DNA of 64,000 bases from Porphyridium purpureum (taxonomy: Eukaryota): positions 248,001 through 312,000 of the forward strand of contig VRMN01000012.1 of the NCBI GenBank assembly GCA_008690995.1. Direction: 5' to 3'. Position 1 is the stretch's first letter. Every line of letters begins with the position of its first letter. The notes below the pieces were generated by a model, which saw nothing but the letters and a program-made list of their open reading frames with translations, did no database searches and was not told where the DNA came from. Shown here one piece after another: positions 15,635 to 62,024 of the stretch. The translations under genes were made by a program, and so were the position numbers.

Positions 15635-15770
15635 CCCACCTCTCCCCTCTTCTTCCTTCAAGCACTGTTTACAACGCACCGTACAAAGCTACCGTCTTGG
15701 CGATTCCAACGACGGACGTGCGCAGCTAACCGCCACCTCTCTGCTCCAGTAACGCGCAAACGCACGCGCG

Positions 15771-18405: not shown

Positions 18406-19330
18406 ATTTCCGCGCTCCTAGACAAGCCTCTCACAATCAAAACAAGCTTCCTCGAACGTCCGCCTCGACCTTTCGCGCCACTTGTGCACCAACGCCTTCC
18501 AATCTTTGCTTGCCGGAACCAAACTTGTACAAGTGCGCAGCGCCGTTCACTCCCTTCCTACCTTCGCGCGACATCCTCGCCATGTTTCTTTACCTAAATA
18601 TATTCTGACCCAGTCTCGAAATTCACACAGCAGGCCGACATCGGCGGCAGAAACTGCGGTTTCATAGTAAAACAGGCCTGTTTAGATATAGAAAATGGTC
18701 GAGCGGGCGCATCATTTGTCGCGTGGTGCGGCAAACTGACGGTCGGGTCGAGAAATGGCCGTGGCGTGCGCGTGGCGGTCGTACGCGAAGAGCTCGGCTC
18801 CGTGAACGCAGATGATGCCGGACTTCAATTTACGAGTGCGATGAACCGTTCGGCGAGAGCCGCAGAATGTCGTAAATCCTAAATTCATTTAGAGCTGTTC
18901 ATGTTGCCAATCGATGGTACCGTGTTGAAAAATGGCTCGCCATCCGCGCAATTCGCGACTCGGCCTCCGTGCCCGGTGGAGTGGGTTGTCGAATTCCATC
19001 AAGCGTGCGTGTGCGCATGCAGATTGTGGAAGGTTTTCAACTTCAGCTCGGAAAGCTGACCCTTGCGAGTCAAGAGGAACCATCGCAGTACTGTGTATTG
19101 TGCAGCCGCGCTGCAGTGTGAACCCAACACCATGCATCACTCTACGTGTGGGCTCTATGCAGGAGCCGGAAATGAAGAGTTGCCATCTGCTTCTACACGC
19201 GATCCGAGCCGTTCGTTGGCGGCGTTCCCCACTATGACTGCTCAGGACGGACTTGGCAAGTCGCTTCAACACAGGCGCTCGAACTCGCTTCTCAGCAGGA
19301 GCCCAAGCCTTCTCCCGGCACATCCACGCT
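18091..19330. repeat. Segment duplicated at about 22136-23280 (tandem duplication, offset about 4045 bp)
   Basis: 18091-18600 appears identical to 22136-22645. Similarity decays gradually further upstream of the genes. Confidence 0.85.
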
Positions 19331-20503
19331 CAAGCCTTCGCGGGCGCTCTATGGCCTGGCCACGTATCGCACAGACACCCAGTCGCGGTTTCCGGCGCTC
19401 CGGTGCACGCACTGAACACCGTCACTGAACCTCCGGGGAACTGTACCATATCGTATAATGTACACCCGGCGTGCGAGGGTACAGCGTAAGCACGTCGCTG
19501 CGGCGCGGGCCGGGCGAGGGCGGCAAGCGGTGGTTTGAAGCCGGATGATGCGCGGCGGCACGCGCGTGGACGAATGCGATGGAGCGTGTCATTGCCTTTC
19601 CGACCGGTGATGACGTGCTCATGCCAACGCCGTCTGTTGCACGTCAAATCGTACTCATATCGACCTCTCAGTCTAAGGAGGGGACATGACAAACACAAGC
19701 GCGCCACTTTGAGATCGCGGCCTCGCGGTCCCGCTCGGACCGAGGCGGGCTGAGGCTTGAACAGCGCGTGCATGTGGCGGTTCGCTGCGCGTACCGGTCG
19801 TCGCTTTGGTGCCCCCATTGGCGACGAGCCCTCGGGTCATCGCGAGCTTAAGTATGGCGCCCCCACGGGTCGTCGTCGCGCTCATCGCGAGGATTTGGAA
19901 TTTCTCGTCACATATAGTCCTACACAGATGACGACCACGAGTGCAGCTCCAGGCGAACTGCAGCAGCATGTCGATCGCATGGCCTTCCAGGCTACCAGCA
20001 TCCGCTGTGCTGTCGTCAGCGGCCCCTTCGTGCTCGAGCTCAGGACAGCCGCGAATGAGTGAGCGATCATGACGTCCAGTACGCGAATCCTGAACGACTC
20101 GACATGGCACAACGGCAATGCCGGGCCCCGCTTGGGCTACTGGAAGCTGGACTACGCGACGCGGGCCGTACATGCCCCAGCGCACGCCGCGGGCACGGCT
20201 ACGGCACGTTGTCGAGCATGCCACTCCTCCCACAATGGCTGAGGCTTCCAGCACGCAGATAACGGTCCGCGGCTGAGTACCACAGCTCCAGCGCCAACTG
20301 TCTTTATGAGCGCGACTGGCGTCTACGCATGCGTAAGGTACAACACAGCAAGACCGCAGCAGAGACAACACTTTTACATGTACTACAAAGAGCAACGTAC
20401 AAAGGAGTCTGGGTTTGGGTCTGTGTTCTCGCCAGAAGTAGCTGCGTGCATCTGAGAAGCTGCGGGGACATTTATGCATCCAAAGCTCGTCCTGGCACCT
20501 CGC

Positions 20504-22450
20504 TTAAACCGCCAACGAGGACAACTTGGAATCTCGTTTGAACCCGAGTGGGTTTCTCAGACGCGAGGAGGTTCGATGCTTCGACGACCTTGAAGAGCGC
20601 GGCGAGTCCGGGAACAGTGCTGCGTGCTTATTTTGAGGCAACTTGAACGGGTTGCTGCCGGCGTCGACGCCGTGCCCATTTCCCTTCTGCGACTTTGACG
20701 AGTGCGGCGAGTCCGGGAACGGTGCTGCGTGCTTATTTTGAGGCAACTTGAACGGGTTGCTGCCGGCTTCGACGCCATACCCATTCCCCTTCAGCAACTT
20801 TGAGCTCGGCGATCGCGGGAACGGTGCCGCGAGCCCACTCACCTTTGCGCCAAACGGGTTACTGTCGCTGCTGTCGGCGTCGACGCCATACCCACCTCCC
20901 GTCTGCGACTTTGACGAGCTCGGTGATCGCGGGAACGGTGCCGCGAGCCCACTCACCTTTGCGCCAAACGGGTTATTGTCGCTGCTGTCGGCGTCGACGC
21001 CCAGGCCATACTCTTTCAGCAACTTTGAGCTCGGCGATTGCGGGAACGGTGCTGCGAGCCCACTCGCCTTTGCGCCAAACGGGTTGTCACCGTTGCTGCG
21101 GACGTCGACGCCCAGGCCATACTCTTTCAGCAACTTTGAGCTCGGCGATTGCGGGAACGGTGCTGCGAGCCCACTCGCCTTTGCGCCAAACGGGTTGTTG
21201 CCGTTGCTGCCGGCACTTATGCCAAGCCCATCTCCCTTCAGCGACTTTGACGAGTGCGATGATTGCGGAAACGGTGCTGCGAGCCCACTCCCATTCAAAC
21301 TGAACGGGTTACTGCCGACGTCGACGCCAAGACCATATTCTTTCAGCAACTTTGAGCTCGGCGATTGCGGGAACGGTGCCACGAGCCCACTCGCCTTTGC
21401 GCCAAACGGGTTGTTGCCGTTGCTGCCGGCACTTATGCCAAGCCCATCTCCCTTCAGCGACTTTGACGAGTGCGATGATTGCGGAAACGGTGCTGCGAGC
21501 CCACTCCCATTCAAACTGAACGGGTTACTGCCGACGTCGACGCCAAGACCATATTCTTTTAGCAACTTTGAGCTCGGCGATTGCGGGAACGGTGCTGCGA
21601 GCCCACTCCCATTCAAAGCGAACGGGTTGCTGCCGACGTCGACGCCAAGACCATATTCTTTCAGCAACTTTGAGCTCGGGGGTTGCGGGAACGGTACCAC
21701 GAGCCCACTCCCATTCAAATCAAACGGGTTGTTGCCGTTGCTGTCGGCACTTATGCCAAGCCCATCTCCCTTCAGCGACTTTGACGGGTGCGACGATTGC
21801 GGAAACGGTGCCGCGAGCCCTCTTCCCTGCGCGCCAAACGGATTGCTGCCGGGAATGCTATCTTTACGCACATCTTGTTCCTCCGACTGTGGCGGCTTCG
21901 GCATGTCCGCCATTGGTGCCACGGGCTTGCTGACCTCCGGGACAAAAACATTGGTTCCGGTCCCAACTTCAGAATGACTTGTTTGACCAGAAACAGATCG
22001 ACCGCCCGAAGATTCTTTCTCCGCTCTGTTTTCCTCGTCGTTGCGGACATGTGGTTCAATGATTACCAAGACCGGAATTCGCTTTTGAGGTTTGGCTTTT
22101 TGCTTTCCTGAATACGGATCATCCACTTCCTTCGGCGGAATCGGCTCCGAAATCGGCTGCGGAATAGGCTGCGGAATAGGTTGCGGATAGAACGTCTGAT
22201 TCGTCTCTACCTTTTCCTCTTGTTCTTGCTCTAAGGGTCCCCAATAGGAGAAATCAGGTGATGACCTCGAAACTGGCTCATCGCGCACGCCAACCCCTTT
22301 TCCGTCGACAGGTTGTGCGACGACGGCGGCATCGTTTTCAACGCTGCTCGGGATGGGCACGCTCTCGGTCGTTTTCGTCGGCGCTGCGTGGCTGTTGTGG
22401 TTAGCTTGAGGTTCTTCTCTAGGAAACAAGCATTCGCAGATATTCCCCAT
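20504..22450 (-). CDS. NPF-repeat disordered protein B with a putative N-terminal myristoylation/palmitoylation signal
   Basis: Same first ~105 aa as protein A. Contains 12 NPF motifs in 32-36-aa imperfect repeats (GSNPF...GLAAPFPQSPSSK). Shares the C-terminus ...GFKRDSKLSSLAV with A. Confidence 0.85.
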   Translation of the reverse strand: MGNICECLFPREEPQANHNSHAAPTKTTESVPIPSSVENDAAVVAQPVDGKGVGVRDEPVSRSSPDFSYWGPLEQEQEEKVETNQTFYPQPIPQPIPQPISEPIPPKEVDDPYSGKQKAKPQKRIPVLVIIEPHVRNDEENRAEKESSGGRSVSGQTSHSEVGTGTNVFVPEVSKPVAPMADMPKPPQSEEQDVRKDSIPGSNPFGAQGRGLAAPFPQSSHPSKSLKGDGLGISADSNGNNPFDLNGSGLVVPFPQPPSSKLLKEYGLGVDVGSNPFALNGSGLAAPFPQSPSSKLLKEYGLGVDVGSNPFSLNGSGLAAPFPQSSHSSKSLKGDGLGISAGSNGNNPFGAKASGLVAPFPQSPSSKLLKEYGLGVDVGSNPFSLNGSGLAAPFPQSSHSSKSLKGDGLGISAGSNGNNPFGAKASGLAAPFPQSPSSKLLKEYGLGVDVRSNGDNPFGAKASGLAAPFPQSPSSKLLKEYGLGVDADSSDNNPFGAKVSGLAAPFPRSPSSSKSQTGGGYGVDADSSDSNPFGAKVSGLAAPFPRSPSSKLLKGNGYGVEAGSNPFKLPQNKHAAPFPDSPHSSKSQKGNGHGVDAGSNPFKLPQNKHAALFPDSPRSSRSSKHRTSSRLRNPLGFKRDSKLSSLAV

Positions 22451-27296: not shown

Positions 27297-27370
27297 TGTG
27301 CACGGGCAGGTGAGAGGGAGAGAAGGTAGCGTTGTGGACGGTCGATGTGAAGGAGGGACCAAGAGGTGCA

Positions 27371-29518
27371 ATGGCGGCTGTGCTAAATCTGACGGGGCAC
27401 TCAGACCATGTGAACGCGCTTGACTTCTCGCCCGATGGCAGGTTCATCGCGTCCGGCAGCTCGGACAAGACGATCAAGGTCTGGGACGCACACACCGGCG
27501 CGTGCGTGCGCACTTTGACGGAGCACTTTGATGAGGTGGGGGCGGTGCGCTTCTCGCCCGATGGCAAGCTCATCGCATCCGGCAGCAGTGACACTGCGGT
27601 CAAGCTGTGGGACGCACACGCTGGCGCGTGCGTGCGCACCATGAAGGGGCACTCAGGTTTGGTTTGGGCGGTGGACTTTTCGCCCGATGGGCGGTTCATT
27701 GCATCCGGCAGCAGTGACACTGCTGTCAAGGTATGGGACACACGCACCGGCATGTGCGTGCGCACCATGACAGGGCACTTGAGTTCAGTTTTGGCGTTGG
27801 ACTTTTCATCGGATGGCCGGTACATCGCCTCTGGCAGCAATGACAAGACGGTCAAGCTGTGGGACGCATACACCGGTGCGTGTGTGCGCACCATGATAGG
27901 GCACGCAGATTTGGTGTGGGTGGTGCAGCTTTCGCCCGATGGCCAATTCATTGTGTCCGGCAGCGCCGACAAGACGGTCAAGCTCTGGGACGCACACACC
28001 GGTGCGTGCGTGCGAACCATCGCGGGGCACTCAAATTCGGTATGTGCGGCGCACTTTTCGCCCGATGGCCGGTTCATTGCGTCCGGCAGCGCGGACAAGA
28101 CGATCAAGTTGTGGGACGCAGACACCGGCACGTGCGTGCGCACTATCACAGGGCGCTCAGATTGGTTACTCATGCGTGTTATGCGGTATTTAGCTGGGGC
28201 GAACGAGGGGCATTCAGGTGAGGTGCAGGCTGTGCGCTTCTCGCCCGATGGCCGGTTCATCGCGTCCGGCAGCGCGGACAAGACGACCAAGGTGTGGGAC
28301 ACAAGCGACCTACATTGCGGCCGTAGAAACACGTCGAGTGCGCCCGAGGAGGACCAGTATTGCAAGGGCTATTGGGAGATTGCCGACTCGGATGGGAGCG
28401 GAGAGTTGGACGCTCAGGAGGCGCTGGCGTTCTTCTCAAAGGCGCGGCTGTCGACTTCGGTGCTACATCGGATGTGGGATGAGATTGCAGTAGCCCGCGG
28501 CAAGCAAGCGCTAAACTATGACGACTTTGTGCTCGCGCTTCGCTTCATTGCGCTGGAGCAGAACGGCGAGGAGGGCAGCCTGGCGCGTGCGCAACAAGGT
28601 CCGCTCTCGCTGTGTGCCAAGATAGACATACCAGGGTCGAACCCGTTTGCCCTTGGCGCGCGCACGCTGTCGGAGACAGCGCAGCACGAGGTATACTGGA
28701 AGCTGGCCCAGGCGGACGGAAGCGGTGAGGTGGACGTGCAGGGAGCGGTTGCGTTTTTGTCCAAATCTGGACTGCGGAACCGCGTGCTGAATGAGATCTG
28801 GGGCCTTGCGACTAGCCAAGGGGTCTTTTCGACGCTCGACATGGAGCGGTTCAAGACTGTGTTACGGCTGGTGGCGATGGCCCAGAAGGGAATGAAGCTG
28901 GACTTGGACGAGGCGGCAGGTGGCGACATGGAACTGATCGCGGACATCAAGGTAGAGGTCACAACAACTTTGCCAGAGCCAACGAGTTCTTTTGCGCGGC
29001 CTTCGCGTCCCGCGACAAGCGTTGTGGACTATCATGCCGCTGAGATTCAATCGCCAGGCAACGGGTGGGACACCGACTTGGAGAGTATGCTTGAGGAAAC
29101 TCCCCTGGACGATCTGACTTGTGAGCAGCTGGCTCGAGTTCTGGAAGAGGTCTTGCAAGTTGACAGCGCATCAGTGAGGAATGTGAGGGAGCACAAGGTG
29201 AACGGTGTGTCTCTGCACGATATGAGGAGGTTTCAAGAGATTGCAAATCTGTCATTCCCGGACAAGAGGAAAGTCGTAAAGTGGGTCGCGGAACGGAAAT
29301 CGGACGAAGGTTTCAAGGAGTACCTGGCGGGTGTCTTTGGCGGTGACTGGGAGCGTGCTGAGCATGCTTACGCATTGTTGGAGAAATACGCAATTTCGAA
29401 TCGAGAAGAGTATCTGTTGTTCCGCTCACAACCAAGCCAGCGAGCAGCTGTGAGGGCGATTGTCCGGCGCTTTCCAGAACTTGGCACGTGGCCGAGAGGA
29501 CCGGTCGCACGGAAGTAG
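27371..29518 (+). CDS. WD40 (7 blades) - EH - NPF - EH - SAM-like protein (inverted paralog of 12587-15634)
   Basis: Seven FSPDG-type WD40 repeats. EH1 ADSDGSGELDAQEALAFFSKARL...LHRMW. DIPGSNPF with NPF at 28640-28648. EH2 AFLSKSGLRNRVLNEIW...LRLVAMAQKG. SAM-like LTCEQLARVL...KVNGVSLHDM. ATG at 27371. Confidence 0.88.
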   Translation: MAAVLNLTGHSDHVNALDFSPDGRFIASGSSDKTIKVWDAHTGACVRTLTEHFDEVGAVRFSPDGKLIASGSSDTAVKLWDAHAGACVRTMKGHSGLVWAVDFSPDGRFIASGSSDTAVKVWDTRTGMCVRTMTGHLSSVLALDFSSDGRYIASGSNDKTVKLWDAYTGACVRTMIGHADLVWVVQLSPDGQFIVSGSADKTVKLWDAHTGACVRTIAGHSNSVCAAHFSPDGRFIASGSADKTIKLWDADTGTCVRTITGRSDWLLMRVMRYLAGANEGHSGEVQAVRFSPDGRFIASGSADKTTKVWDTSDLHCGRRNTSSAPEEDQYCKGYWEIADSDGSGELDAQEALAFFSKARLSTSVLHRMWDEIAVARGKQALNYDDFVLALRFIALEQNGEEGSLARAQQGPLSLCAKIDIPGSNPFALGARTLSETAQHEVYWKLAQADGSGEVDVQGAVAFLSKSGLRNRVLNEIWGLATSQGVFSTLDMERFKTVLRLVAMAQKGMKLDLDEAAGGDMELIADIKVEVTTTLPEPTSSFARPSRPATSVVDYHAAEIQSPGNGWDTDLESMLEETPLDDLTCEQLARVLEEVLQVDSASVRNVREHKVNGVSLHDMRRFQEIANLSFPDKRKVVKWVAERKSDEGFKEYLAGVFGGDWERAEHAYALLEKYAISNREEYLLFRSQPSQRAAVRAIVRRFPELGTWPRGPVARK

Positions 29519-40367: not shown

Positions 40368-40681
40368 TGAAAGCAAACAACCCGATTTGTGATACAATTC
40401 TTGAGCTTTCGCTCCAACTTTATTCCACACAATAACCAATCAACGGGCAAGTGGACAGCAACACTCCTTGCCCGTGAGTGTGCTTGTCCGCGCCCTACGC
40501 TTCGTCGTGCCAAGTACATTTATATCCGCGCGCCGCCGCTTCGCCTACATCCGCGCGCTTCTATTGCATGTCCCCCGCGCGCCCCCACGCGGCACACGCT
40601 TTTGTAACGCCCACCTCGCGTCCACGCGTACCTATCGCCTTGCCGCACCGTTACACTACCTGCTTGCAGTATACTTCTTCA
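40368..40681 (-). repeat. 3' LTR of the Copia element (314 bp), preceded by a short polypurine tract
   Basis: Aligns to 46126-46418. The minus strand reads AAAAGGAGTG|TGAAGAAG at the inner boundary. Confidence 0.9.
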
Positions 40682-40902
40682 CACTCCTTTTGCAAATGCG
40701 TGCACCTCGCTCACGTGTTGATGCCGGAGCGCGCGTGCGTCCTTCATCTTGGTAATGCCGAGCAAAGCGTCGCGCATCCTGGCGAATCTCTTGCCTTGGA
40801 GCGGCTTCGTCAGGGCGTCTGCAAGAGTATCGTCTGTCTTGCAGTATTTCATTGTCACGTTTCCCTTTTCCACATGGTCGCGTATGAATCAATGTCTGAT
40901 AT

Positions 40903-41211
40903 TGTCAGAATACTCTGTTTGTCCTTCAGTGACTGTACACCTAGGAGAGTCGGACGAGTCCACTGCGTGTATAAGTCTCGCCGCAAGCTCCACTAGAGGT
41001 GCCGCGGTAGTGCTTAGAAGGTAAGGGGAAACTATTTTGATATATTCAAAAGGGATTGTGTTTACGTGTGTTACACACCTATAGGCTTGAACTACAGTGT
41101 CAGAGGTCCTCTACAAGGAAGCTCCACACTGAGTCGCCGACGCGCCCGTTACCGTTCCGGCTTCCCGTGCGTTTAACCTTCCGGGTTTTCCGCTACCCGA
41201 TATTAGCGACA
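40903..41211. mobile_element. Nested solo LTR of a different family (309 bp) inserted in the Copia RNase H
   Basis: TGTC...GACA termini with 5-bp target-site duplication GATAT (40898-40902 and 41212-41216). Removing it rejoins SRHMNI|RH*FIRDHVEKG. Confidence 0.9.
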
Positions 41212-42971
41212 GATATTCATGTGGCGGGAGCGCTTTGTCTTTCCGCGGCCCGCTTTGATCAGTGCCATGGCGGCTGTGTTATCCTGTAGGACGAAGACTC
41301 CTGGTACTGCGACCACCTTATGCTGTAACATGTTCGATGCCCACAAGCTCTGACCAACTGCGTCACTGAGACCAACGAGCTCAGCCTCTGTGGAACTTTT
41401 AGTGTTCATCTTTTGCTTCGTACTTGATCCATGCACCACGCCCTGTCCAATACTAATCACGCAGCCCGTATGGCTCTTGTGATCGTCGTGCGTCGCAAAC
41501 GATGCGTCAATGTAAACTCGCATGCCATCGTCTGTCATTCCCAAAGTCAACGCCAACTTACGTGTCTCGTTCAGGTATTTCAAAATCCTCATCATTTTGT
41601 CTGTGTCTTTTTCATTTGGTGATTGTACTCTCGTCGCTAAGAATGAGGCAACCGTAAGCACATCCGGTCTTGTTCGCTTGGCAAGGTAGAGGACCTTGCC
41701 CACCGCGGCATGAGACCACTCCGCGTCAATTGCACTTAGCGGCTTCGCCTCGAGCACCATGAACAGGTCACTTGCTGCAGGCGCTTTGGCGCCTTTCAAG
41801 CTCGGGTATTCGTCTAACAGCCTCTGTACGTAGCCCTCCATACTGACGACGACTTGTCCTCTGCCTGTGTAGTCGAAGACCGTACATAGGTAGTCGAGTC
41901 TCCTGCCGCGGTTTACCGTCAATCTTGGGTACGCCGCTCTTATCTCTGCCAGTACCTCGTCTACCAACCGTTCTGATGTCGCAATGATTTTCATGTCATC
42001 AACGTAGAGCAGCAGGTGAACAACGCCGTCGCTCGTCGCTCTTTTGAACAAACATTCATCGCGAGCGTTCATTACGAAACCGTTTTTTTCCAGGAGCGAG
42101 CATTAAGGTGATCGTAGCACCTTCTTCCCGCATCTATACAGCCGTACAACGCACGCTTTGGTCTGCACGTTACCGCGCCTCCGTGGTTATACTCGGTGTA
42201 CTTGCCGTCCACAGCCACAAGGTATTTGGCCAGCGCGCCTCCTATCCGCACATAGGTGTGTTGACCCGTGTCCGGGAGCGGAACATTCAAAAAGGCGCCG
42301 GGGAAGTCGACTGTGGCGACTGCTGCATTCGTCCTTGCCGCTTCCGCTGCAAGTAGCAGGACCGAGTCTGTCGAAACTGTAGGCGATGAGTAATCCGGAT
42401 ACAGTTCTCTCAACTGCTCAATACCTCCTGCGACCATACGTGCCTTCACCTTCTGAAACTCACCATCACCGGCGTATTTCTCTGTCACGAACATAAAGGT
42501 CGGTATAATTGATTTACGTTGCTCATGCGTGAGGTCCGTAAGCCTCACCGGGTCTAGCACGTCATATCCCTTGCTCGACATTTGATGGAGTTCAGACAGT
42601 ATGGCCTTCAGAGCCACGCTGCCATGCTTGGCTATCGCTTGTCTCACGCTGGCACGATAAGCAACCCTCTTCAGTCCGGCAGACTCCATATCGTTACCCG
42701 CCTTGCGCTTCTTACTCTTGGTCACAAGTGCCCCGGGTTTCTTGCGGTGTGGGCCTTCCTCATCGTGCTGGTGTTCCGCTGCCCTTTTTCGGACACATTC
42801 TTCTTCGTTCATTCGCGCGCGCTCTTTTGTCGTTATTTCCCTGACGAGCTTGGTTTCGCGCTCTTCCAGTGCCTTGATCTTTTCCTCTATTTCTTTGATT
42901 CTCTGGTACACCAGTGCGGGGTGACTGGCCGCAGATTCTTGATTCGCGCCAGTTTCGTACGCGCCACGCAC
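41212..42971 (-). pseudogene. Copia reverse transcriptase - RNase H (frameshift near 42075)
   Basis: ORFs 42072-42971 and 41203-42072 carry the RT and RNase H motifs. The RNase H tail continues at about 40760-40902. Confidence 0.9.
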
Positions 42972-43175
42972 TTCACCTGCACTTTCCGCATAAGCTCCCT
43001 CAACTGGTATAGTATCCTGCCTGCCGTCTTGTTGCCCTTTGCTCGGCGATTCTGTCTGTTCTACGCGCAGTGCGTCACTCGGTGGATAAGACGTGGGGTC
43101 CGCGGATACACCTGGGTCACTTACCGGCGGTTCTGCTAGAGGCCCAGCAGTCGCTGTCGACCCTGGCGCACTCCA

Positions 43176-44981
43176 TTAGGGCCCAGTCAGTGCTTCATCT
43201 TGCCAATCTCCGCTTGCCTCAAGTACTAAGATTGGTGCCGGATCTTGGGCGCTGTACCCTCTCTGTGCAAGCGGCTGCTCCTCGTTGACCTCCACACTTC
43301 CTTCGTATAAGGGCAGAGGCTCCTCTTGCGCGCCAAGCTGGTTCTCCGCTGCGCATAACTCGGTCCCTCGTACGTCTACTGTTCCGGGCTGGTCCATGTA
43401 TTCTCGTCCTTCAGCCATACCTTGCCCAATCTGCATATCTGTGTCTTCGTCCTCCTGAGCATGAGGCGCTTGTGGATCCGTACCTTCTCTCTCATCGTCT
43501 GTCCCGCGCGCCCGCAATTCTTCATCCACCCCGGCTACGTGAGGCATGGTATTCAGAAACGTAATCAGGTGGTCGGGCATGGGTAGTGGCACCCATGTTT
43601 GCCTCACGACTGTCTGCATTGTGTTCAGGTTCAGCAACTTCCAGCTACCGACGCCATTCTCCATGGCGTGTAGTGCGACGCACCCAATCGTTCGTTGGCG
43701 CATCCTGTTGTCCACCTCTGCGGATCGTGCTTGCACGTAGCTCCCAAATGTCGCTCTCAAGTCTGTCTTCACATTAGGTTTCCGCCCGAAAAACACCGTG
43801 TGCGGCGTCTCTCCTGCATCCGAAGCGCCGCTAGGTATCATGTTTATCCTCTGACGGGCATACTCGACGGCCCCCGTTAACATAACCTTCAGCATCTTAT
43901 ACGGCAAGTCGTAGACGATCACACGTACCCTTTCCTTGATCTGTCGGATCGCCCGTACCGCAGCAGGAACTACTTCACCTGCGGCCGTCAGCTCAGTGAC
44001 CACGCCCGCTTCGCCAAGGTCATTCATCAGCGCTTGGACTGCTCCTTCTCTGTCAAATCGCATCTCGGTAATATCGATGCCGCGCGCGTTAACGCTGGCC
44101 TTCATGCTACGAAGCGCCACCCATATTGAGGTGTCCTTGCTCTTGACCGGCTCCACCAACACGTACTGGGAAGGTTTCAAGACCGCGAGCAAAAACGGCG
44201 ATTTGTCAATGAAAAACAGGTCCGCATGCATCTCTTGCGGCCTACGAGGGCCTGGTATGCCGGTCTCCGGCACAAATGGTGTCGTATGTCCCGTGCTTCT
44301 GCCCTTCAACGCTGCTAGAGACGGGCCCCAGATGCGCTCGGCACGGTCTATGTCGTCGACGACTACATCAACATTCGCGAGGTCGCCACGCGCAACGGTT
44401 CGCTTGAAGCTTGCCAGACCTGGATACCCCAGTTTTTGGTGTAAGTCTCTTGCTGCACTGGCACGCCTTACTTCTTGCGTCGTGCATTGTGCTACATTCT
44501 CTCGCACTGTAGCAACTCCACCTCTTCCTTGATTACCAAGACTGGTCACCCACACAAAGGCGTTCTCTGCGCTTTGTACGCTCATACCGCGGCGTGATCC
44601 CCTGAATCTCTTCACCGGTACACGTGCTGCGTAGATTCCCGTATCGTGTCGTCGAAACTCGAGCCATTGGTCCGCACCTGCTCCTAGTGGCCACCGCACG
44701 CAGCACCGATCGTTCTGTGCGTCGTACTGCACGCAATGCCCATCTTGGACCAGCTTACTCGCAAACAAAATGTTTCCTGTCACCCCGGCGTGGTGATACG
44801 CATTCCCAAACGCGGTGCTCCCTTCCCGCTCCACTATTAGGCCTCCCGCAGCTTCATTGATCCCAAATAGGGTGAGTGCCTTAGAAGACTTTTTAATGGA
44901 TCCAGGCGCAAGGAGACTACGTGTGTTGAATATGTGCTCTGAGGAGCATGTGTCAAAGCCCACTAAGCACTTCTCCTTCAA
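43176..44981 (-). pseudogene. Copia protease - integrase segment
   Basis: FDTCSS protease motif. LHQKLGYPG. DDE core with D (HAD) and D (FDREG). The expected third acidic residue is apparently replaced (AAVRAIRQIKER). Confidence 0.85.
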
Positions 44982-45014
44982 GCTCTTCTTTCCACCCTTC
45001 GCCAGGCCGCACCA

Positions 45015-46110
45015 TCATGCACGCGGCTGCATGTTTTCCCGCTCGATTTGCTCAACAAGACCCGGCAGGTGCTCACCTTCTCGCATCCGCTCGTGCGAAA
45101 TGCGCGTCGCGTGCTTGCCATACCGCTCCTTCGCACGCTTCGCCTTCCCGATCTTCACCGCCATCTGCTCATCCCTTGGGCGCTCGTCGCAGTCCCTCAT
45201 CAAGTGATCACCACCACAGTTGTAGCAGGTCCTGTCATCCAAGCGCGTCGCGGCCTCTTCGCGTGGCTCACCAGTCACTGCTGCCCACGTCCGACCGATC
45301 AGCGGCTGCCTCGCGTACCCATATTGCGCGACATAGGATACGACCTCGTCAACAGACGCAAACGTCCGAGCCTCGTTCAGGCATTTCCTCGCGGCCTCAT
45401 CCCAACGCGTGCCTTCCAGGCGTGACATGAAGTCTGCTGCTCGGCGCTGCGTGGTCGGTACCAACTCTCCTACTGCCTCCATCGCTAACAGCGCCGCCTT
45501 GAAGCGGACCTTAAAGCTGAGCAAGGACTCGTCATGTCCGACGCGCAGGGTCTCGTATGCATGTCGCGCATATTGCTGATTACGCGTGTTGTCGTCGTAT
45601 CCACGCGTCAGATGCGTCGCCAGCACGCGCTCTACTAGCGCCAACGGATCATTTGCGGAGGCCGCGAGTGAGTCCCAGCCCTCTTTCTCGGCTAGCGCGT
45701 CCTTTGAGGACCTCGACAACTGCCCGAGTATGAAGCCGAAGCACCGCGCCTTGCGGTCCCCGGATATCGCCTTCCTCCCTCTCGCGCGCTGCGAGCCTGA
45801 CCTTGAGCTCTTCTTTGAGTACAAACGCCTCCAAGGATTCCGTCCCAAACGATGCGGCTTGCTCCTCGGTTAACGCCGGAATCGGCTGTGGCACCGGATA
45901 CCTGCGTACTGCCCCGTCAAGCGTGAAAATCATCGCAAGGTCCCCGTATTCTTTGCGGGCGTATTCTCCTACGACCTCTAACCAAAGAACCACTGCGGCT
46001 GGTGCCACATGCACCCCGTCGTACTCCAAGACGGGCAGTGCATTGACCAAGCCATGGTCTCTCACGTGGGCACTGCGCCCCGGCGCACCCCGCTGCTTCC
46101 CGTCTTTCAT
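45015..46110 (-). pseudogene. Copia gag (frameshifted)
   Basis: ATG at 46110. Overlapping ORFs 45649-46134 and 45015-45848. Contains a CX2CX3HX4C knuckle. Confidence 0.8.
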
Positions 46111-46125
46111 TTTGCTGTCCGCTTG

Positions 46126-46418
46126 TGAAAACAAACAACCCGATTCTTGGTAACTTTACTGCACACAACAACCAACCAACGGGCAAGCGGACAGCAACAC
46201 TCCTTGCCCGTGAGTGTGCTTGCCCGCGCCCTACGCTTCGCCGTGCCAAGCACATTTATATCCGCGCGCCGCCGCTTCGCCTACATCCGCGCGCTTCTGT
46301 TGCATGTGCCCCGCGCGCACCCCACACGGCACACGCTTTTGAAACGCCCACCTCGCGTTCACGCGTACCTATCGCCTTGCCGCACCGTTACACTAGCGGC
46401 TTGCAGTATTCTTCTTCA
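46126..46418 (-). repeat. 5' LTR of the Copia element (293 bp) with a TATAAA box
   Basis: Aligns to 40368-40681. Minus-strand GATATAAATG near 46255-46261. Confidence 0.9.
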
Positions 46419-47001
46419 GTTAGTGGGGATGTGTCATGACTCGCTCCCTCCGCCGTACCCCTCCATGCACTGTACAGCACTGCCCCGCACTGTACCCTAA
46501 CAATCCTTGTCCTTACCGGGCCGCGGTTATTCTTAGGTTCTTAAACAGTCTAACGGTTAGCGTAGGGTAGAGAAGGGTATAAACAGTTAATTTCTATCTC
46601 CACAAACGGTTTACTAGCTTATCTTCTATCATTTTGGCAGAAAATAATTTGAAAGCGAAAATAATTTCTAAGTACTGTGATAGTAAAAATCGTCTGTTTT
46701 CCTATGAAATTTACTTATCGCGTCGCTTCGTGTAAAGTTGAAAACTATTGTCTGCGGAAATGATAGAAGATAATTTGCATATGCCAATCTCCTGTTTTAT
46801 AAGTAAGACGTTACCATCACTCTTTTGGGTTGCGATTAAGCAAGTCAAGCAAGTGCCAAGCATTGAGAGAAAAAAGAGGCGAGTGGGCGAGCCTGTGTGA
46901 GGCGAAGTGCGCCCTTTGTTTTTGTGTTTGAAGCGAATCGCGGTGAGAGTAGACGAAGTCGTGCGAGTCGATTGCTGCGGAAGAGCGAACTGGGCGGCGC
47001 C

Positions 47002-49496: not shown

Positions 49497-51369
49497 ATTC
49501 CTTCTCGTCGTGCCTTGAAACACACACAAGCCCGATATCGTGAAAACATACCATTTTTACCATATCTTTATCGTCTGTCATTTTGATAGACAATAGTGAT
49601 GGATAATTGTATTTATGTTATGCTGTGTGCGCGAGCTAGGTAAACCGTATCCAGACAAAACTAGTCAGAGACGTGACAGCATGGGAGAATCGTACAAGCA
49701 TGACATCTCAGAAACGTCTGCGGCGGCTGCGATAGTTTAAGTTAGGCGAAGAGTGTTTGTCGTGAGTGGTAATAAAGGTTGGAGCGTCGACAAGCGGGTG
49801 AAGAGTATGTCGTCGAGGGGACCTACCGGGTGCGTTAGAGTCACGGCTCTATAACAATTTAAGACCGCCGTCGCGGCGATTTAGTAAGAGTAAAGGGAGG
49901 GCCGATGGGGCCAGCAGGATTGAGGTAGTGGTTCTCTGTGCGGCCGGGCTAGCGGAGGAGGGGAGTGAGTGGGCCATTCGGGACCACATCACGGCATGTT
50001 CTACTTACTCAGTCTATCGATCCCAGCTTACCATCACGGCCGTTTACAGACGGGTCTTAGCGCTAAAAAAACAACCCTCTCCGGGAAAAAAGCCTCACCA
50101 GAGTTCGCCGCCGCTAATCGCTTCCACCGCAACCCTCCAGCGCGCCGCTTCGATTCCGGCGGCGGCCCCACCCACGGAAGCCGACACCCTGCCAGGCTAC
50201 ACGCGTTTGCGCCTGGCCACGCCGGCGCTTGTACCATCATGCTCTTCTGCAGCCCACCTCGAGCTGTCTTGCAACAAAGTGAGACATGAACGGACACGAC
50301 TTTTTCTGTGAGAAATTTGCCCACGGAATGGCAAGGGTCGCGGCGACCGGTTGAACGGCGCGGAATAATTCGGTCGAGTTCGTGCCAATATGTGGCTCAA
50401 CGACCAGACGAACGACCAAAGGCACGGTTTGGAACGTGAAGGGGCACAGAGAGCGCGACCCCTCAGTTTTCGGAGACGGCGCGCTCACTGCCTATAAAAG
50501 GGCGACGGATTTTTGCCTCCGGGTTTTTGCCGACGTCCTAATTCTTTCTTTCTTTTAAGGGTTTTATAAGATAAAGTGATTGTTTGAAGCAATTTTGCGG
50601 GAGCCATTGCGATCTGCTCCTGCACGCGCCTTGTCCATTACGATCGACACGGCGCACAAAGTTGTGGCCAGCCCTTCGGCCATTCGCGAGAGGAAAGAGG
50701 CGGTTTTAAACCGTTTAAACCGGTTCTTTCGACTTTTTCCACACCTTATGTTTGGCGGACACGCCGCAGCCGCGTCGTGCGTGTCCATCGGCTGCATCGG
50801 CTGCACCCACTGTACAGGCCACACGCGCTGTACCCCCTTCCGATGTTTTCTGATGTTTTGGGGGTGTTTTGCTATGGGGTCAAGCGCGCCCCCGCTAAAA
50901 CACGGTGCGTGCTCATTTTTGAATCCGACCGATCTTGCGGAGCGCGGAGGATCGGCAGGCTGGGGAGGATGTTCCGACGATTTCTGTAGTCCAGCTGGCG
51001 CAGTTTGGTACATGTTGAGCTCTCTCGGCACCACCCCTTATTTCCGTCCATCTGTGCTCCACGCCCGGGCCTGCTGCGATGCCGCCCAGTGGCGTCGCGG
51101 AGAAGAGCGAGCACACTTGCGTAGACCAATGCGCGTGTGCGCGTGTGATGGGCTGGGCCGCGAGGGTTTGGTGGACGGCGAGGTGCGGTGAAGGCGTGAT
51201 ACAGAAGAACACGCGCACGACGCTCAGGTGAACGCACACGGGCTTGCGTGCGCGGTCTTGGTGGAAGAGGTCAAGCAGCTCACTTCTTCCGCTGCGCTGA
51301 AGGGTGTTCCCGCATAGGCGCACGTCGCGGCTGAGCTTGGTGGACACGCAAAAATACCTCAAGATCGAG

Positions 51370-52983
51370 ATGGCGCGCGCGGCTCCGTGGGCGTGGACAT
51401 TCGCCATCGCGCTGCTTGCCGCACTCTGCTCGTGGCACCATGTGGCAGCAGAGTTCTGCCAACTGGTCGAGCTGAGCGATCCGTGCTTGGCGGCCGGGAG
51501 CATGGGCTTGATTCCGGACTCCGCAGGGGCGTTCACATGCCAGGCCGTCCCCGCGACGTGCCTCAGAGAGTTCCCAGACTGTGAGCCGACGCCCTGCCAG
51601 GGATACGTCGAAACTGAGGAACCCCGGATGGTGCTCGATTACGAGGATGTTTCGGAGGTATCGTTGGAGTTTACCGCTCTGCCCGTGGACGTTGTGGTCG
51701 ATTATGGCGATGGAACATTGACGGCGTACGCGAGCATGGGGACATTTGATCACACGTACAGCGTTCAGGGCAACTATCGCGTCTTGATCTCGGGAAATCT
51801 GGGCGGTATCAGGTTCTTCGAAGGCCTTAGTAATGTGGTTTCGTGGGGCGAACTTGGCCTGACCACGTTGAGGAATGCTTTTTTTCAAGTACCTGTGCAG
51901 AGTGTCCCCGTCGACCTACCGCCGACGGTCACGGATCTGACGCGTACGTTTCTTTTTTCAAGTTTCAACGGAGAAATTGGAACGTGGGACGTCAGCCGTG
52001 TGACAAGAATGGTCTCCACTTTTACCGGCGCCGCTTCTTTCAACCAGGACATCTCTGATTGGGACGTCAGCAATGTGACAAGCATGTTCGGCATGTTTAA
52101 CGGTGCCTCTTCTTTTGACCAGGATATTTCTGATTGGGACGTTAGCAGTGTGACAGACATGACCTCCATGTTTGACAGTGCCGGTTCTTTCAACCAGGAT
52201 ATTTCCGGCTGGAACGTCAGCAGTGTGACAATCATGGATTCCATGTTCGACCGTGCCGCTTCTTTCAACCAGGATATCTCTGGTTGGGACGTCAGCGGTG
52301 TGACAGACATGACCGACATGTTTTTCAACGCCTCTTCCTTCAACCAGGATATTTCTGAATGGGACGTCAGCAGTGTGACAACCATGGTTGGCATGTTTAG
52401 TCGCGCCTCTTCCTTTAACCAGAATATCTCTGGTTGGGACGTCAGCGGTGTGACAACCATGAGCGGCATGTTCTTCAACGCCTCTTCCTTCAACCAGGAT
52501 ATTTCTGAATGGGACGTCAGCAGTGTGACAAACATGGCTGGCATGTTTAGTCGCGCCTCTTCCTTCAACCAGAATATCTCTGGTTGGGACGTCAGCAGTG
52601 TAACAAACATGGGTTCCATGTTCAGTCGCGCCGAGTCTTTTGACCAGGATGTTTCTGCTTGGGACGTCAGCAGTGTGACAAGCATGACTTTTATGTTTAG
52701 CAGCGCCTCTTCTTTCAACCAGGATATTTCCGATTGGAACGTCAGCAGTGTGAAAACCATGGCCGACATGTTTAGTCGCGCCGCTTCTTTTAACCAGGAT
52801 ATTTCCGGTTGGGACGTCAGCAGTGTGACCGACATGCTCTTCATGTTTAGCCGTGCCTCTTCTTTTAATCAGGACCTCTCGGATTGGGATGTAGGAAGTG
52901 TGGTGGTTTGCGGTTTCTTCAATTTCGATTCTCCGCTGACGTGCGAATTTTCCGCCGGGTGTGCGACGTTCACGTGCGCATGA
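51370..52983 (+). CDS. Secreted DUF285 / BspA-like repeat surface protein with a PKD-like N-terminal module
   Basis: Signal peptide ([17 protein letters not shown]). Cys-rich cap. PKD-like VDYGDGT...HTYS..GNY.V. Thirteen 25-aa repeats FNQDISxWDVSxVTxMxxMFxxA. ATG at 51370. Confidence 0.9.
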
Positions 52984-56803: not shown

Positions 56804-58210
56804 TCAAAGTTTGAAGCTTGAGAAACGCTTCCAGAGAGTGGAAGACATTGCTCTTGCTGGCTGCGTTTCAAGCGATTCGACAGCTGGGCGGAGCAGGCGA
56901 CCGGAGCTTGCCAAACTTAGACGAGTCTGCACTGCAGGCAGAAATGATAGCAAGTTTGTTGCGACACCCATGACGCTTCGACCTGCCAGACGGCTTCGAC
57001 ACAAGGTTTTGAACGCGCCGAGGTGTGCAGAAATGCGCGATGTCCGCGCGCCGAGAGCGAGTATCTTTGTATTGAACGCTTTCGGTTGCCACACGCTGGA
57101 AGGCTGTGCCAGAAATTTGCTGGTCTCGGTCATCGGTCGTGCGTCTGCGCCAACAAGTTTGTCAGAATCACCGAGTCCAGAGACCTGGTCAAAGAAGCGA
57201 GACGCAGGGCCGCGGTTTGGTTCTGTGTCTCTGATCCCGGCAATATCAGACCCGTCGCCTGGGTCAGAGTCATTCAGGTCACTGATATCCCAAAGCTTAA
57301 CGGTCTCATCATAGCTACCGGACGCCAACGTTTTTCCATCTGGCGAGAAAGCGAGGCAGTGAACGTAGGCTGTATGACCCTCTAGCACGCGCACGCAATT
57401 GCCCGAGCGGGTCTCCCACAATCGAATGGTGTGATCGTAGCTCCCGGAGGCAATGTATTCGCCGCGCGGCGAAAAAGCCACAGCCCGTACCGCTTTTCTG
57501 TGCCCGACCATCGAACGCACGATCTCACCAGTCTCCATACTCCACAAGTTGACTCGCTTGTCGTGGCTGCCCGACACCACATACTTGCCACACGGCGAAA
57601 ACTTGACCGAGAACACCAAGCTTGTGTGTCGCTTAAAGGCGTGCACACAGTCGCCGGAAATGGGTTCCCATAATCCGATCGTCGCGTCGTGGCAGCCGGC
57701 TAAAATATAACGCCCATCCGGGGAGTAATCTACCGAACTTATCCAGCCAACATGCCCGACCATTGTGCGCACATATTCGCCCGTGCGTGGGTTCCACACT
57801 CTAATGGTCCACATGCGGTCCCCCGCGGCGAGATAGTTGCCATCTTTCGAAAAGGACACGGACGCCACGCCGGCCTTGTGCCCCTGCTTCCCCTTTTCTG
57901 AGCGGCTCGAGTACGGCGGCGTCGCGTGCTCGCACATCCCTGTGCGCACGTTCCACAGACGAATCGTGTGGTCATTACTGCCAGACGCCAACAGCTCTCC
58001 ATCTGGCGAATGCTGAATCGTCAACACCAAGCACTTGTGCCCTCTGAGCGTTCGCATGCAATGCCCTTTCCGCGGATCCCACAGCTTGATCGTGCCGTCG
58101 TCGCTGCACGACGCGAGATGCCGTCCGTCTGGCGCAAAGTCCACTCCAGATACCCAATCGCTATGACCAGGCAGTGTCAGCGCGTCGTTCTGCTTGGGTA
58201 TTGCGTCCAT
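56804..58210 (-). CDS. WD40-repeat protein (7 blades) with an uncharacterised C-terminal tail
   Basis: Seven GH...F(S/A)P(D/C/R)G...WD repeats ending in LWDISDL. Confidence 0.85.
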   Translation of the reverse strand: MDAIPKQNDALTLPGHSDWVSGVDFAPDGRHLASCSDDGTIKLWDPRKGHCMRTLRGHKCLVLTIQHSPDGELLASGSNDHTIRLWNVRTGMCEHATPPYSSRSEKGKQGHKAGVASVSFSKDGNYLAAGDRMWTIRVWNPRTGEYVRTMVGHVGWISSVDYSPDGRYILAGCHDATIGLWEPISGDCVHAFKRHTSLVFSVKFSPCGKYVVSGSHDKRVNLWSMETGEIVRSMVGHRKAVRAVAFSPRGEYIASGSYDHTIRLWETRSGNCVRVLEGHTAYVHCLAFSPDGKTLASGSYDETVKLWDISDLNDSDPGDGSDIAGIRDTEPNRGPASRFFDQVSGLGDSDKLVGADARPMTETSKFLAQPSSVWQPKAFNTKILALGARTSRISAHLGAFKTLCRSRLAGRSVMGVATNLLSFLPAVQTRLSLASSGRLLRPAVESLETQPARAMSSTLWKRFSSFKL

Positions 58211-58548
58211 CACGACCTATCCCACTGCGCTCCAAAGACTTTCTCTCTGTCTCTCTTTGTTGTTCTCCCTCTCCAACTCTGCGACGAACAGACCGAAAAA
58301 GCTCCCGAGTCATGAACATAGTAAAACGAGTGCATTTACATAGACAATTCAACCCTCCGTAATAACCCGTCGAATTCCCATAAAGCCGCAGAACGCGAGG
58401 GAGCAACGAGCGGAGAGCACGGTGTATGTGACATGACAACTTGGATTGAATGCGATGTATCTGCCTCTCTCTCTTTCTCTCTCTCACTGTGTGTGTGTGT
58501 GTGTCTTGCCGACGTATGTCACTAGGTTTGTGATAAGCAGAAGCGGGA

Positions 58549-60480
58549 TTATAAGCTTGGGTTCCAGATCCACGACGGATGGTCTGTGGACGCCCGGCCT
58601 TTTCGTGGTTCCATGTGGTGGGCGAAGAGCGATGGAAGCACTGTAAAAAGGCCTGCTACGATGCCGCTGTACGGGACTCGGGTTGACGCAAAATGCGGAC
58701 GGTAGGGATGCAGCAGTTTGGAGAGGCTGCCGGGCTCTGGCGAACGCACGCTGGAACGGTATTGGGTATTGGAAGTCGAAAACATACCATGCGCCCGTCT
58801 GGTGGCGTATGCTTTCAACGTCGTCGCGTATCTTCCGACCGCGAAAGCGACTGAAGGTTGAGGGCATGTGTGCATGGCATACGGTACGCGCATACGGAGC
58901 TCTTTGCTGATGTCGCCGAAACGTGAAAAGAGAGCGCAGAAGCGAAGCATGCTGCCGCTTGGCAAGGCGTCGCTGCCAGCGCCGTCGCGATCATTGCCAG
59001 AGGAATCACGCTCAGGGTCAGCTTTGTCGCTGTCCCTCCCAGTGCTGACATCCTCGAAATCATACGCGTCGCTGTCGGTGCCAGCACTGTCATTATCGTC
59101 ACCGTGCGCGTCGCTGTCGCTGCCAGTGATATCATTTTCGGAATCATACGCGTCGCTGTCGCTGCCAGTGATATCATTCTCGTAATCATACGCGTCGCTG
59201 TCGCTGTCAGTGATATCATTGTCATTAGCATGCGCATCGCTGTCACTGAGTGCGGAATCATTCATTTTTTCGGTGCGACGACCTCCATCTTCTGAAGGGT
59301 ATTCAGTGTCATCCCACGAAAGATCACCCCCTTGCCAGGGGTCTTCTCCGTCACTGTCCAGGACATCCTTACCCAAAATATCGCGATCCGTGCCGTAGCC
59401 ATCGTCGTCATCGCTCTTGCTCCCAGATTCGGTGAGTCTGGCGCTAGCAGGTTTCGGAGGAAGCGGCTTTGGCTCGTCAAATTTGACGCGCTTCAAATCC
59501 CACACCTTAACCGTGTTGTCGCGGCTGCCGGAGGCAAGATACTTTCTGTCTTTCGAGAAGCGCAGCGACCGAACGCGCGCAGTGTGCCCTACGAACGTGT
59601 GCAAATGGACGCCTGTCGCCACATCCCATACGCGCACCGTCGTGTCATCACTGCCAGACGCAATATACTTACCATCGGGCGAAAAAGTCATGGAATACAC
59701 CCAGCCCGGACAGTTCAACAGGGTGCGCACACACTCGCCCGTTTGCACATCCCACAACCTCACCACGTCATCGCTGCTGCCAGAGGCGAGCAGCCGTCCA
59801 TCAGGCGAATACTCGAGCGCGAGTATGATGCCGTCGAGCTCTGGAAACGTGCGCACGCACGCACCTGTGCGCACATCCCACACCTTGACAGTTCCGTCAC
59901 CGCTTCCGGACGCGACAAACTTTCCACAGGGAGAGAACTGAACAATTAATACCACGCATGCATGCCCCTTCAATGCGTGCATGCACGCGCCAGTGCGCGC
60001 GTCCCACAACCGAAGCACACGATCGTCACTGCCAGACGCCAATATGTGCCCGTCGGGCGAGAAGTTCACCCAGTTCACGTACTGTCGATGTCCGATAAAT
60101 GTGCGCATACATTCGCCACTGCGCGTGCGCGAGTCCCACAGTCTCACGTTCGTGTCGGAGCTGCCGGATGCGAGCATGCTTCCGTCCGCCGAGAAGTGCA
60201 CTTTTTCATAAAACCCGACGTTGCCCTTCCACGGCAGCGTTTTTGGATCGGTCGGTTCTTCCTGCCACGGCGGCGGTGTCGCATCTTTGCCGCTATCTTT
60301 TGCCATCTTCTCCAGCAATTCGACCGTTCGCACGCACACGCCCGTGCGCACGTCCCAGATCTTCATGCTCTGGTCTGAGCTCGCAGACGCCATGTACAAG
60401 CCATCGCGCGCAAACTGCACGGCCGTCACTTCGCCCTTGTGGCCCAGCAGCGTCAACGGCGCATACGCGAAATCAGACAT
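58549..60480 (-). CDS. WD40-repeat protein (7 blades) with an acidic Asp/Ser repeat tail
   Basis: ATG 60480 (MSDFAY). WD40 repeats, then 14-aa repeats (DSDSDAYDYENDIT-like) at about 59050-59250. The true 3' end is uncertain. Confidence 0.82.
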   Translation of the reverse strand: MSDFAYAPLTLLGHKGEVTAVQFARDGLYMASASSDQSMKIWDVRTGVCVRTVELLEKMAKDSGKDATPPPWQEEPTDPKTLPWKGNVGFYEKVHFSADGSMLASGSSDTNVRLWDSRTRSGECMRTFIGHRQYVNWVNFSPDGHILASGSDDRVLRLWDARTGACMHALKGHACVVLIVQFSPCGKFVASGSGDGTVKVWDVRTGACVRTFPELDGIILALEYSPDGRLLASGSSDDVVRLWDVQTGECVRTLLNCPGWVYSMTFSPDGKYIASGSDDTTVRVWDVATGVHLHTFVGHTARVRSLRFSKDRKYLASGSRDNTVKVWDLKRVKFDEPKPLPPKPASARLTESGSKSDDDDGYGTDRDILGKDVLDSDGEDPWQGGDLSWDDTEYPSEDGGRRTEKMNDSALSDSDAHANDNDITDSDSDAYDYENDITGSDSDAYDSENDITGSDSDAHGDDNDSAGTDSDAYDFEDVSTGRDSDKADPERDSSGNDRDGAGSDALPSGSMLRFCALFSRFGDISKELRMRVPYAMHTCPQPSVAFAVGRYATTLKAYATRRAHGMFSTSNTQYRSSVRSPEPGSLSKLLHPYRPHFASTRVPYSGIVAGLFTVLPSLFAHHMEPRKGRASTDHPSWIWNPSL

Positions 60481-62024
60481 CGCTATGCCCTGTCTGCCGC
60501 TGCCCCTTGGCTGCTGCGTTCGCTCAGACTTCCAGCGCTGCCACTCAAGAGGACGGTCTCGCACGCGCGTGTCCAGCGTCGAGAACGTCACCGATGAGAC
60601 ACAGGTTTAGTTGACCATGTGACCTTGACGGGTTGGCGCCGATGCGTCACAGGTATTGTGGACGCGCCAATGGTGCGCGAGTGGCGCGAAAATAAGTCCG
60701 CTCAGCATATTTAAAGGTCGCGGGATCATGGCATCGATGCGTCTAGCTCGGTGGACGCCCATGTGAGTGTCGTGCATGGGCAGAAAGTGTCCTCATCAAC
60801 GTTTCCTGCACTTTGCAGAAGAGCGTCGTGTCTTGGAAGGTGAGTGCGTACCTGGACCAGATCGAAATAGGCCCATCCAAGAAGGACGCCGACATTTCAG
60901 TCGCGCATGCCGTGTTACCCCTCTCGAGCTCGGTCGCAATGGCTCTGCCGTGCATCCGGCTAAACAGCAGAAAAGACGTTCTTCGTCATGTGAGAGAATC
61001 GCTTGTGTCTTCTGAAAATACCATTGGGGCATGAGAAGGCTCCTTGGTGAGCTATTCCTGCCACGTCCAGTGAGCAGCCCTGAGGCAGCGGGGGCGTGAC
61101 CTGAGAATTCGAGTCTTCGTGCGAAGGACCGTCTTTAACAAAGAACGAAATCGCCTTCCAGACGCTTGTCAAGGTCACTTCCGCGGTGGCCTTCATCAGC
61201 AGTCTGTGCGCGCCGTCCAAAAAGATCATGAAACAATCTGTAAAACACAGATTTGGGATGGTTCTTGTGACGGTTGGTAATCATCTTTTTCGTCAATTTC
61301 TGAATCGAGCACCGACAGAATCTAACATTTCGGCTTCGATTTGTATCCCGACGAGCCTACCGCAATGGCAACCAGGAAAATGCCAATCAAACCTAACGCG
61401 GTGTATGGTTCATGGCGTCGCTGTTTGACCGCCTACAATATCTGACGATGGGCACCATCAAGCACTAATTTAAGCGCGTACTCCTGTGCACAGCAATCAC
61501 AGATGCCCTCCTGGAAGTGTGAAAGCTCTGTCACATGACTTTTTTTGCCCGTCGCGCCTCATCCAAAGCGCCCAATCGTGATCTCGTGTGACGAATCGCC
61601 AGGTGTGGATACGATCCGCGCAAGTAACCGCGCGCCTTCAATCCTTCGTAAGGAATGACGGCGTGAAGTCCAGAATCATCCAACCACGTCCTCACCCAAC
61701 AATCGCCTTGTACCCAGACAAATCGACCTCCTCGGCGAGCGAGCGCATACTGCACCCACAAATAATCACCAGCACATTCACTGTGCACGCTGCGGCCTTC
61801 AGCTCTGCAAAACACTCTTCACAAATCCTCATCGCCATTGCTTCGCGTGCGGCCACAATCTCTTTCACCACCACCACCACCACATCCTTTCTCGCCCAGC
61901 TCCACGAGCGCCACTTTCGCATCCTCCTCGTCAACTGTGTACATCGCGCTTTCCCATTGGAACGTCGCAATCGGCACCATCCACATCTACACTAATGAAC
62001 ACTTATCAAACCATACGAAACTGT

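Follow-up and report, generated by a model that had tools for sequence, protein, structure and literature searches.

Probable Tf1-like self-priming in a Copia lineage represented in the red alga Porphyridium purpureum

What primes reverse transcription in a Copia element whose 5' LTR is followed by a stretch complementary to the LTR itself? The question is raised by an LTR element on the minus strand (46418-40368) of a 64,000-nt stretch of Porphyridium purpureum contig VRMN01000012.1, which was analysed as a whole and is called the window below. We describe the element and the edges of its LTRs, the pairing and its recurrence in related elements, and then weigh self-priming against other explanations.

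The Ty1/copia identity of the element follows from the order of its domains, as, read along the minus strand, the integrase (44450-43782) precedes an RVT_2 reverse transcriptase (about 42650-42100); the TG...CA LTRs at both ends and the purine tract likewise fit Ty1/copia (Table 1). The initial annotation of this DNA had assigned the element to Copia, and the RVT_2 match together with an integrase fold upstream of the RT bears this out. The RVT_2 match of the frameshifted fragment (E 5.9e-7) lies below the curated cut-off of Pfam, which all 30 of 30 intact relatives pass, and a PDB search with the RT/RNase H profile returned chance matches only. The integrase part displays the conserved residues D77, D133 and E165, and its best PDB sequence match is an integrase (E 0.007). 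A model of the integrase from the single sequence was too poor for use (pLDDT 46); the model retained has a pLDDT of 91.4, and its structure matches retroviral integrases (E 1.5e-7). Pfam detects neither the integrase core nor the protease in any of the 30 intact related polyproteins (P0126-P0232), although the fold is clearly that of an integrase. The unmatched core suggests a divergent lineage, one that domain-based annotation will miss.

Table 1. Features of the Copia element and its LTRs in the window (positions of the forward strand)
Feature	Position	Strand	Remarks
5' LTR	46126..46418	-	293 nt, TG...CA; from LTR-LTR alignment; other copies part from the sequence at 46126 and 46418
TATAAA box	46255..46260	-	function presumed; upstream of the paired segment by 63 nt (from first T) and of G46198 by 62 nt
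Competing hairpin	46180..46226	-	-23.1 kcal/mol; would bury part of the primer for starts upstream of about 46220
Putative self-primer	46184..46197	-	14 nt; exact complement; inside 5' LTR
Putative primer-binding site (PBS)	46112..46125	-	14 nt; abuts the final CA of the LTR; no TGG
gag with zinc knuckle	45015..46110	-	frameshift near 45790-45845; single in-frame stop, then pol
pol, protease-like and integrase part	43176..45014	-	D-D-E integrase core about 44450-43782; linker stop 43178-43176
pol, reverse transcriptase and start of RNase H	41212..43175	-	RVT_2; tblastn with intact relatives; frameshift near 42099
TG...CA insertion splitting RNase H	40903..41211	-	309 bp; 5-bp target duplication; single copy in window
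End of RNase H (with stop) and purine-rich tract ahead of 3' LTR	40682..40902	-	
3' LTR	40368..40681	-	314 nt; U5 22 nt longer than that of the 5' LTR; from LTR-LTR alignment

The Gag of the element matches the P. purpureum protein P0121 at 100% and P0122 at 54%. P0121, annotated as the hypothetical protein FVE85_9728, is the Gag of this element, and its gene model bridges the gag frameshift through a gap predicted at 45718-45629. P. purpureum has further Gag families, several of its hypothetical CCHC proteins being related to the Gag of the element; a search with its N-terminus retrieved seven proteins, six named as P. purpureum and one unnamed, all of them without DNA context. gag and pol share one frame with a single TGA between them (45012-45017), and several P0122 copies also end after the zinc knuckle. 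The TGA may therefore be a natural read-through rather than a product of decay. The 309-bp insertion in RNase H is likely a solo LTR or a MITE of another family. Given this insertion, the frameshifts in gag and RT, the stops in pol and the missing target-site duplication (no repeat of 4-6 nt lies within 3 nt of the element ends), the element is a decayed Copia, and this copy cannot transpose on its own. The lack of a target-site duplication may indicate that the copy was recombined or rearranged.

The edge of the LTR was fixed without use of the pairing. The 5' and 3' LTRs are identical at 272 of 292 aligned bases (8 of the 20 substitutions are G>A) and diverge past TTTCA. Contigs of another LTR copy depart from the window sequence exactly at 46126 in six of eight public runs, and do so at 46418 in four of the eight. 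From 13 nt outside the 5' LTR onwards the flank consists of a high-copy repeat (46431-46500), whose summed depth in run X1 is about 8,000, compared with 250. A related motif flanks another copy of the LTR in six runs, which hints at a target preference. Farther out lies an inverted repeat of 32 nt (46619-46773, 88% complementary), to which 49568-49597 adds a related third arm; these may be the ends of a DNA transposon. The window also contains repeat-rich host genes (12587-15679, 16582-22450, 27332-29518, 51304-52983 and 56804-60591), among them a DUF285 gene, two near-duplicate genes spaced by about 4 kb, and WD40-looking arrays of 126-nt repeats.

The 14 nt that follow the 5' LTR, CAAGCGGACAGCAA (minus strand, 46125-46112), are the exact reverse complement of TTGCTGTCCGCTTG (minus strand, 46197-46184), and each of the two occurs once in the window. 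The perfect complement reported initially is thus reproduced to the letter, and its register likewise holds, the pairing abutting the independently fixed LTR edge at 46126. The other details of the arrangement given there agree with the sequence: no TGG is found past the 5' LTR, only base 46111 lies between the site and the gag ATG (46110), a TATAAA lies about 60 nt upstream (the first T of 46260-46255 is 63 nt before 46197), and the LTR alignment places one mismatch, a G>A, in the primer segment of the 3' LTR. The duplex of primer and PBS amounts to -24.9 kcal/mol, and among the rows listed for eight public runs no variant letter falls into 46112..46125. As a separate observation, the U5 end (46113-46139) resembles the primer with C>T changes and is able to anneal to the PBS by G-U pairing (-10.5 kcal/mol); this may serve as a switch or stem from base composition.

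Related elements were collected with an RT/RNase H profile, which yielded 95 loci, 17 in genome bins (evidently eukaryotic contaminants) and 78 in metagenomes, the metagenome search contributing the best 80 of 534 confirmed stretches; none of 28 candidate viral contigs held a relative. The best RT/RNase H segments of the 95 loci are 33-46% identical to the element. In 46 of them at least 230 nt precede the candidate gag start, and here a perfect complement was sought 0-1 nt past a CA with its partner 30-330 nt upstream, using 103 coding windows as controls. A complement of 12-19 nt starting from the final CA of the LTR is present in 26 of the 46 loci and in none of the 103 coding windows, and one of at least 11 nt in 28 loci versus one coding window, the LTR end of the relatives resting on the CA (AACA in 20 of the 28) and not on second LTR copies. 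The test had been widened after misses in a narrower pass and was repeated on the full set of 46 loci, none being excluded by hand; the narrower pass (260 nt before the ATG) had given at least 10 nt in 24 of 44 rows, including the window element and two rows of locus L081, with 17 rows excluded. The complement is shorter than 11 nt in 18 of the 46 loci, in several of which the gag start is mis-called or the leader too short, and some of which are weak cases of 9-10 nt that still end in AACA. At least three, L074, L083 and L090, are unexplained misses: their gag starts are plausible, and the available leader shows no LTR complement and no TGG site.

None of the 28 related sites contains TGG, and they represent 28 distinct 11-mers, so that no fixed host RNA is able to fit them all. 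Their GC content is 0-40%, that of the site in the element 8/14. Sites that differ in all 28 cases and are nevertheless paired appear to us as covariation in the strong sense, albeit between sequences too distant for base-by-base alignment. The covariation that the initial annotation had proposed as a check is thus seen across distant relatives, where the pairing is kept with different letters.

The upstream partner starts at a CA in 24 of the 28 relatives and at a TCA in 20 (backgrounds 0.11 and 0.039), a property that was no part of the search. This TCA resembles the Pol II initiator TCAKTY (PMC3601003). Counted from the A of the initiator, the primer has a median length of 15 nt (exactly 15 nt in 13 of 28), and its first base is often unpaired. 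When relatives are folded from the predicted start, the pairing probability of the primer helix is at least 0.88 in 21 of 22; no TATA distance is conserved among them. In an RT tree of 115 rows, calculated with a quick method and labelled for self-priming from the narrower first pass, pairing-positive elements occur throughout and do not cluster (13 changes versus 14.1 when shuffled). The phylogeny that had been suggested as a check thus speaks for a trait spread across the lineage and leaves the element itself on a long branch of unsupported placement, with 46% best identity. As the tree is quick and midpoint-rooted without named outgroups, it gives neither origin nor donor.

For the element in the window we predict G46198 as the transcript start, which would result in a 15-nt primer with an unpaired first base. 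This base follows a T (pyrimidine-purine step 46199/46198) and provides the same 1+14 layout as in the relatives. The start had initially been placed near 46197; the region is retained, and the 15-nt median primer of the relatives favours G46198 over 46197 itself. The LTR has no TCA initiator at the primer, the nearest TCA being at 46211. It is able to form two competing hairpins. For starts at 46199-46197 the pairing probability of the primer helix is 0.73-0.95, and for starts 25-35 nt past the TATA box (46235-46225) it is at most 0.05, because the hairpin of -23.1 kcal/mol takes the primer. A diverged LTR copy (87% identical; runs X1, X11 and X17) carries several substitutions that weaken this hairpin and one changed base in the TATAAA (46257); in X17 three adjacent primer bases are changed as well, and flank, not PBS, comes next. 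Among the RNA runs, which consist of assembled contigs only, the X20 contig ends at 46192, an end that we do not count as support for a start site since X17, X8 and X19 span the whole LTR. The accessible text of PMC12770821 states that TATA and start-site information is missing for endogenous promoters of C. merolae, so that a TATA spacing of 63 nt is not to be judged normal or abnormal; data on red-algal promoter spacing were not found in the open-access literature.

We consider it probable that this Copia lineage primes in the manner of Tf1, with the first ~15 bases of its own RNA and not with a tRNA. From the observed geometry, register and recurrence of the pairing we infer the following route. 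Transcription would begin with the paired segment or immediately upstream of it (predicted G46198), and the 5' end of the RNA would fold over a 58-nt loop onto the site beside the LTR, or pair with that of a second packaged genome. By analogy with Tf1, the RNase H of the RT would then cut past the last paired base (46184), and the RT would extend the cut 3' end into U5 and R to produce minus-strand strong-stop DNA. Plus-strand synthesis would finally copy the primer into a new PBS, whereby the two segments would stay matched while their sequence drifts.

The pairing may also be real and selected and yet have a structural or regulatory role, such as control of translation at the ATG, packaging or dimerisation, with transcription starting further upstream and priming taking another route. 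The 63 nt between TATA box and segment, the lack of a TCA initiator there, a PBS that ends 1 nt before the ATG, and the two alternative hairpins that compete for primer and PBS would agree with such a role, and in fungal GalEa Copia a conserved hairpin whose role is unknown replaces the PBS (PMC5445492). We nevertheless regard this explanation as unlikely. The pairing of the relatives starts at the CA of the LTR even where the ATG is 360-750 nt away, which ties it to the edge of the LTR rather than to the start codon; in most of them the partner starts at an initiator-like CA, and the upstream hairpin is weakened in the diverged LTR copy.

A host tRNA, half-tRNA or other small RNA could be the true primer through the 14-mer, the match to the LTR being secondary, and most Copia lineages indeed use tRNA-Met, half tRNA-Met or half tRNA-Ile (PMC6317226). 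The absence of TGG from the element and the 28 relatives, and the variety of their sites, make this very unlikely. A search of Rfam over 45900-46700 gave one chance match only (E 0.89), and ARAGORN found no tRNA within the 64-kb window. Read as an Asp anticodon loop, the CT-GTC of the site would put a pyrimidine at position 37, where tRNAs almost never have one. It is highly improbable, finally, that the pairing arose by chance or by a single local inversion in a decayed element. In favour of such an origin, the element is degenerate and GC-rich and lacks a target-site duplication, and wide search windows can pick up unrelated inverted repeats such as 46773/46634; six of 25,468 sampled window positions give a complement of at least 14 nt, a count that may include the 46112-46125 site and the inverted repeat at 46619-46773. 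However, none of 20,000 dinucleotide shuffles of the LTR attains 13 nt (the best reaches 12), the register at the LTR edge is exact, and the same design recurs in relatives and not in the controls.

Tf1-like self-priming thus remains our preferred reading, and the known systems differ in how far they resemble it. [quoted passage not shown] As in Tf1 and Tf2 of Schizosaccharomyces pombe and the Tf1/sushi group, which includes Tcn1, the PBS beside the LTR of our element complements its own LTR and not a tRNA. Unlike these Ty3/gypsy chromoviruses, in which the integrase follows the RT, the element is Copia-ordered with an RVT_2 domain and a predicted primer of ~15 nt. Side helices as in Tf1 are not enriched, occurring in 3 and 1 of 28 relatives against 1 of 28 in the control (p 0.37 and 0.12 in the element), a comparison in which short helices could be missed. 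The lineage would accordingly be Tf1-like at most in its central duplex.

The closest precedent within Copia is the plant TAR lineage of Ty1/copia (Houba, Osr-1), for which self-priming was predicted in 89% of 203 elements, scored by an LTR complement of at least 10 bp that starts 0-5 bp past the LTR (Neumann et al. 2019, PMC6317226). Our element is likewise a Copia that scores as self-priming on this scale, with 14 bp at 0 nt and no TGG. It differs in its red-algal host, and no plant-named protein is among the best 120 matches of either RT/RNase H search, which again suggests a divergent lineage. Since Neumann et al. also cite earlier self-priming proposals for Houba and Osr-1 (PMC6317226), the concept of a self-priming Copia is not new. 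The self-priming Copia lineage proposed in the initial annotation consequently stands insofar as the geometry recurs with different sequences, and the novelty it implied was too high. Over prior work, a red-algal host and the evidence from the initiator are added; the open-access literature yielded no description of an algal Copia that primes itself, and subscription papers may bear on the point.

The CoDi-type elements of diatoms are, like the present lineage, divergent aquatic Copia. We take the RT/RNase H motifs of the element to resemble those of diatom elements; no named CoDi sequence is among the matches listed. The accessible text of Maumus et al. 2009 (PMC2806351) defines the CoDi lineages without discussion of primer sites. 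GalEa Copia have been reported from metazoans, fungi and red algae including Porphyridium (Piednoel et al. 2013, PMC3587641; PMC5445492), and the element shares with them the generic motifs KARxVA, YVDD and ADxxTK (PMC5445492, PMC3587641). Metazoan GalEa possess a tRNA-Met site beginning with TGG, and fungal GalEa a palindromic hairpin past the LTR without LTR complement (Donnart et al. 2017, PMC5445492). Unlike GalEa, the element has neither of the two past its LTR.

Within the literature found, self-priming has been shown experimentally in a Ty3/gypsy element only, and for Copia it was predicted in one plant lineage. If true here, it would extend to a second, very divergent Copia branch, implying that tRNA-free priming arose repeatedly or is old, and it would be relevant to the idea that LTR elements were originally self-primed (PMC3601003). 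As a broader picture, which we put forward tentatively and hold at somewhat less than even odds, the elements would form a very large and ancient branch of Copia in algae and further aquatic protists, red algae and diatoms included, whose tRNA-free priming evolved independently of that in Tf1/sushi and plant TAR. Its primer, of a roughly constant 15 nt, would start at the Pol II initiator and require no pretzel, and primer and site would be copied from each other in each cycle, leaving their sequence free to change. The initiator signature provides a sharp prediction of the start site. A lineage that primes in this way would probably be beyond the reach of silencing by tRNA fragments, and annotation that relies on a tRNA site could overlook it for this reason.
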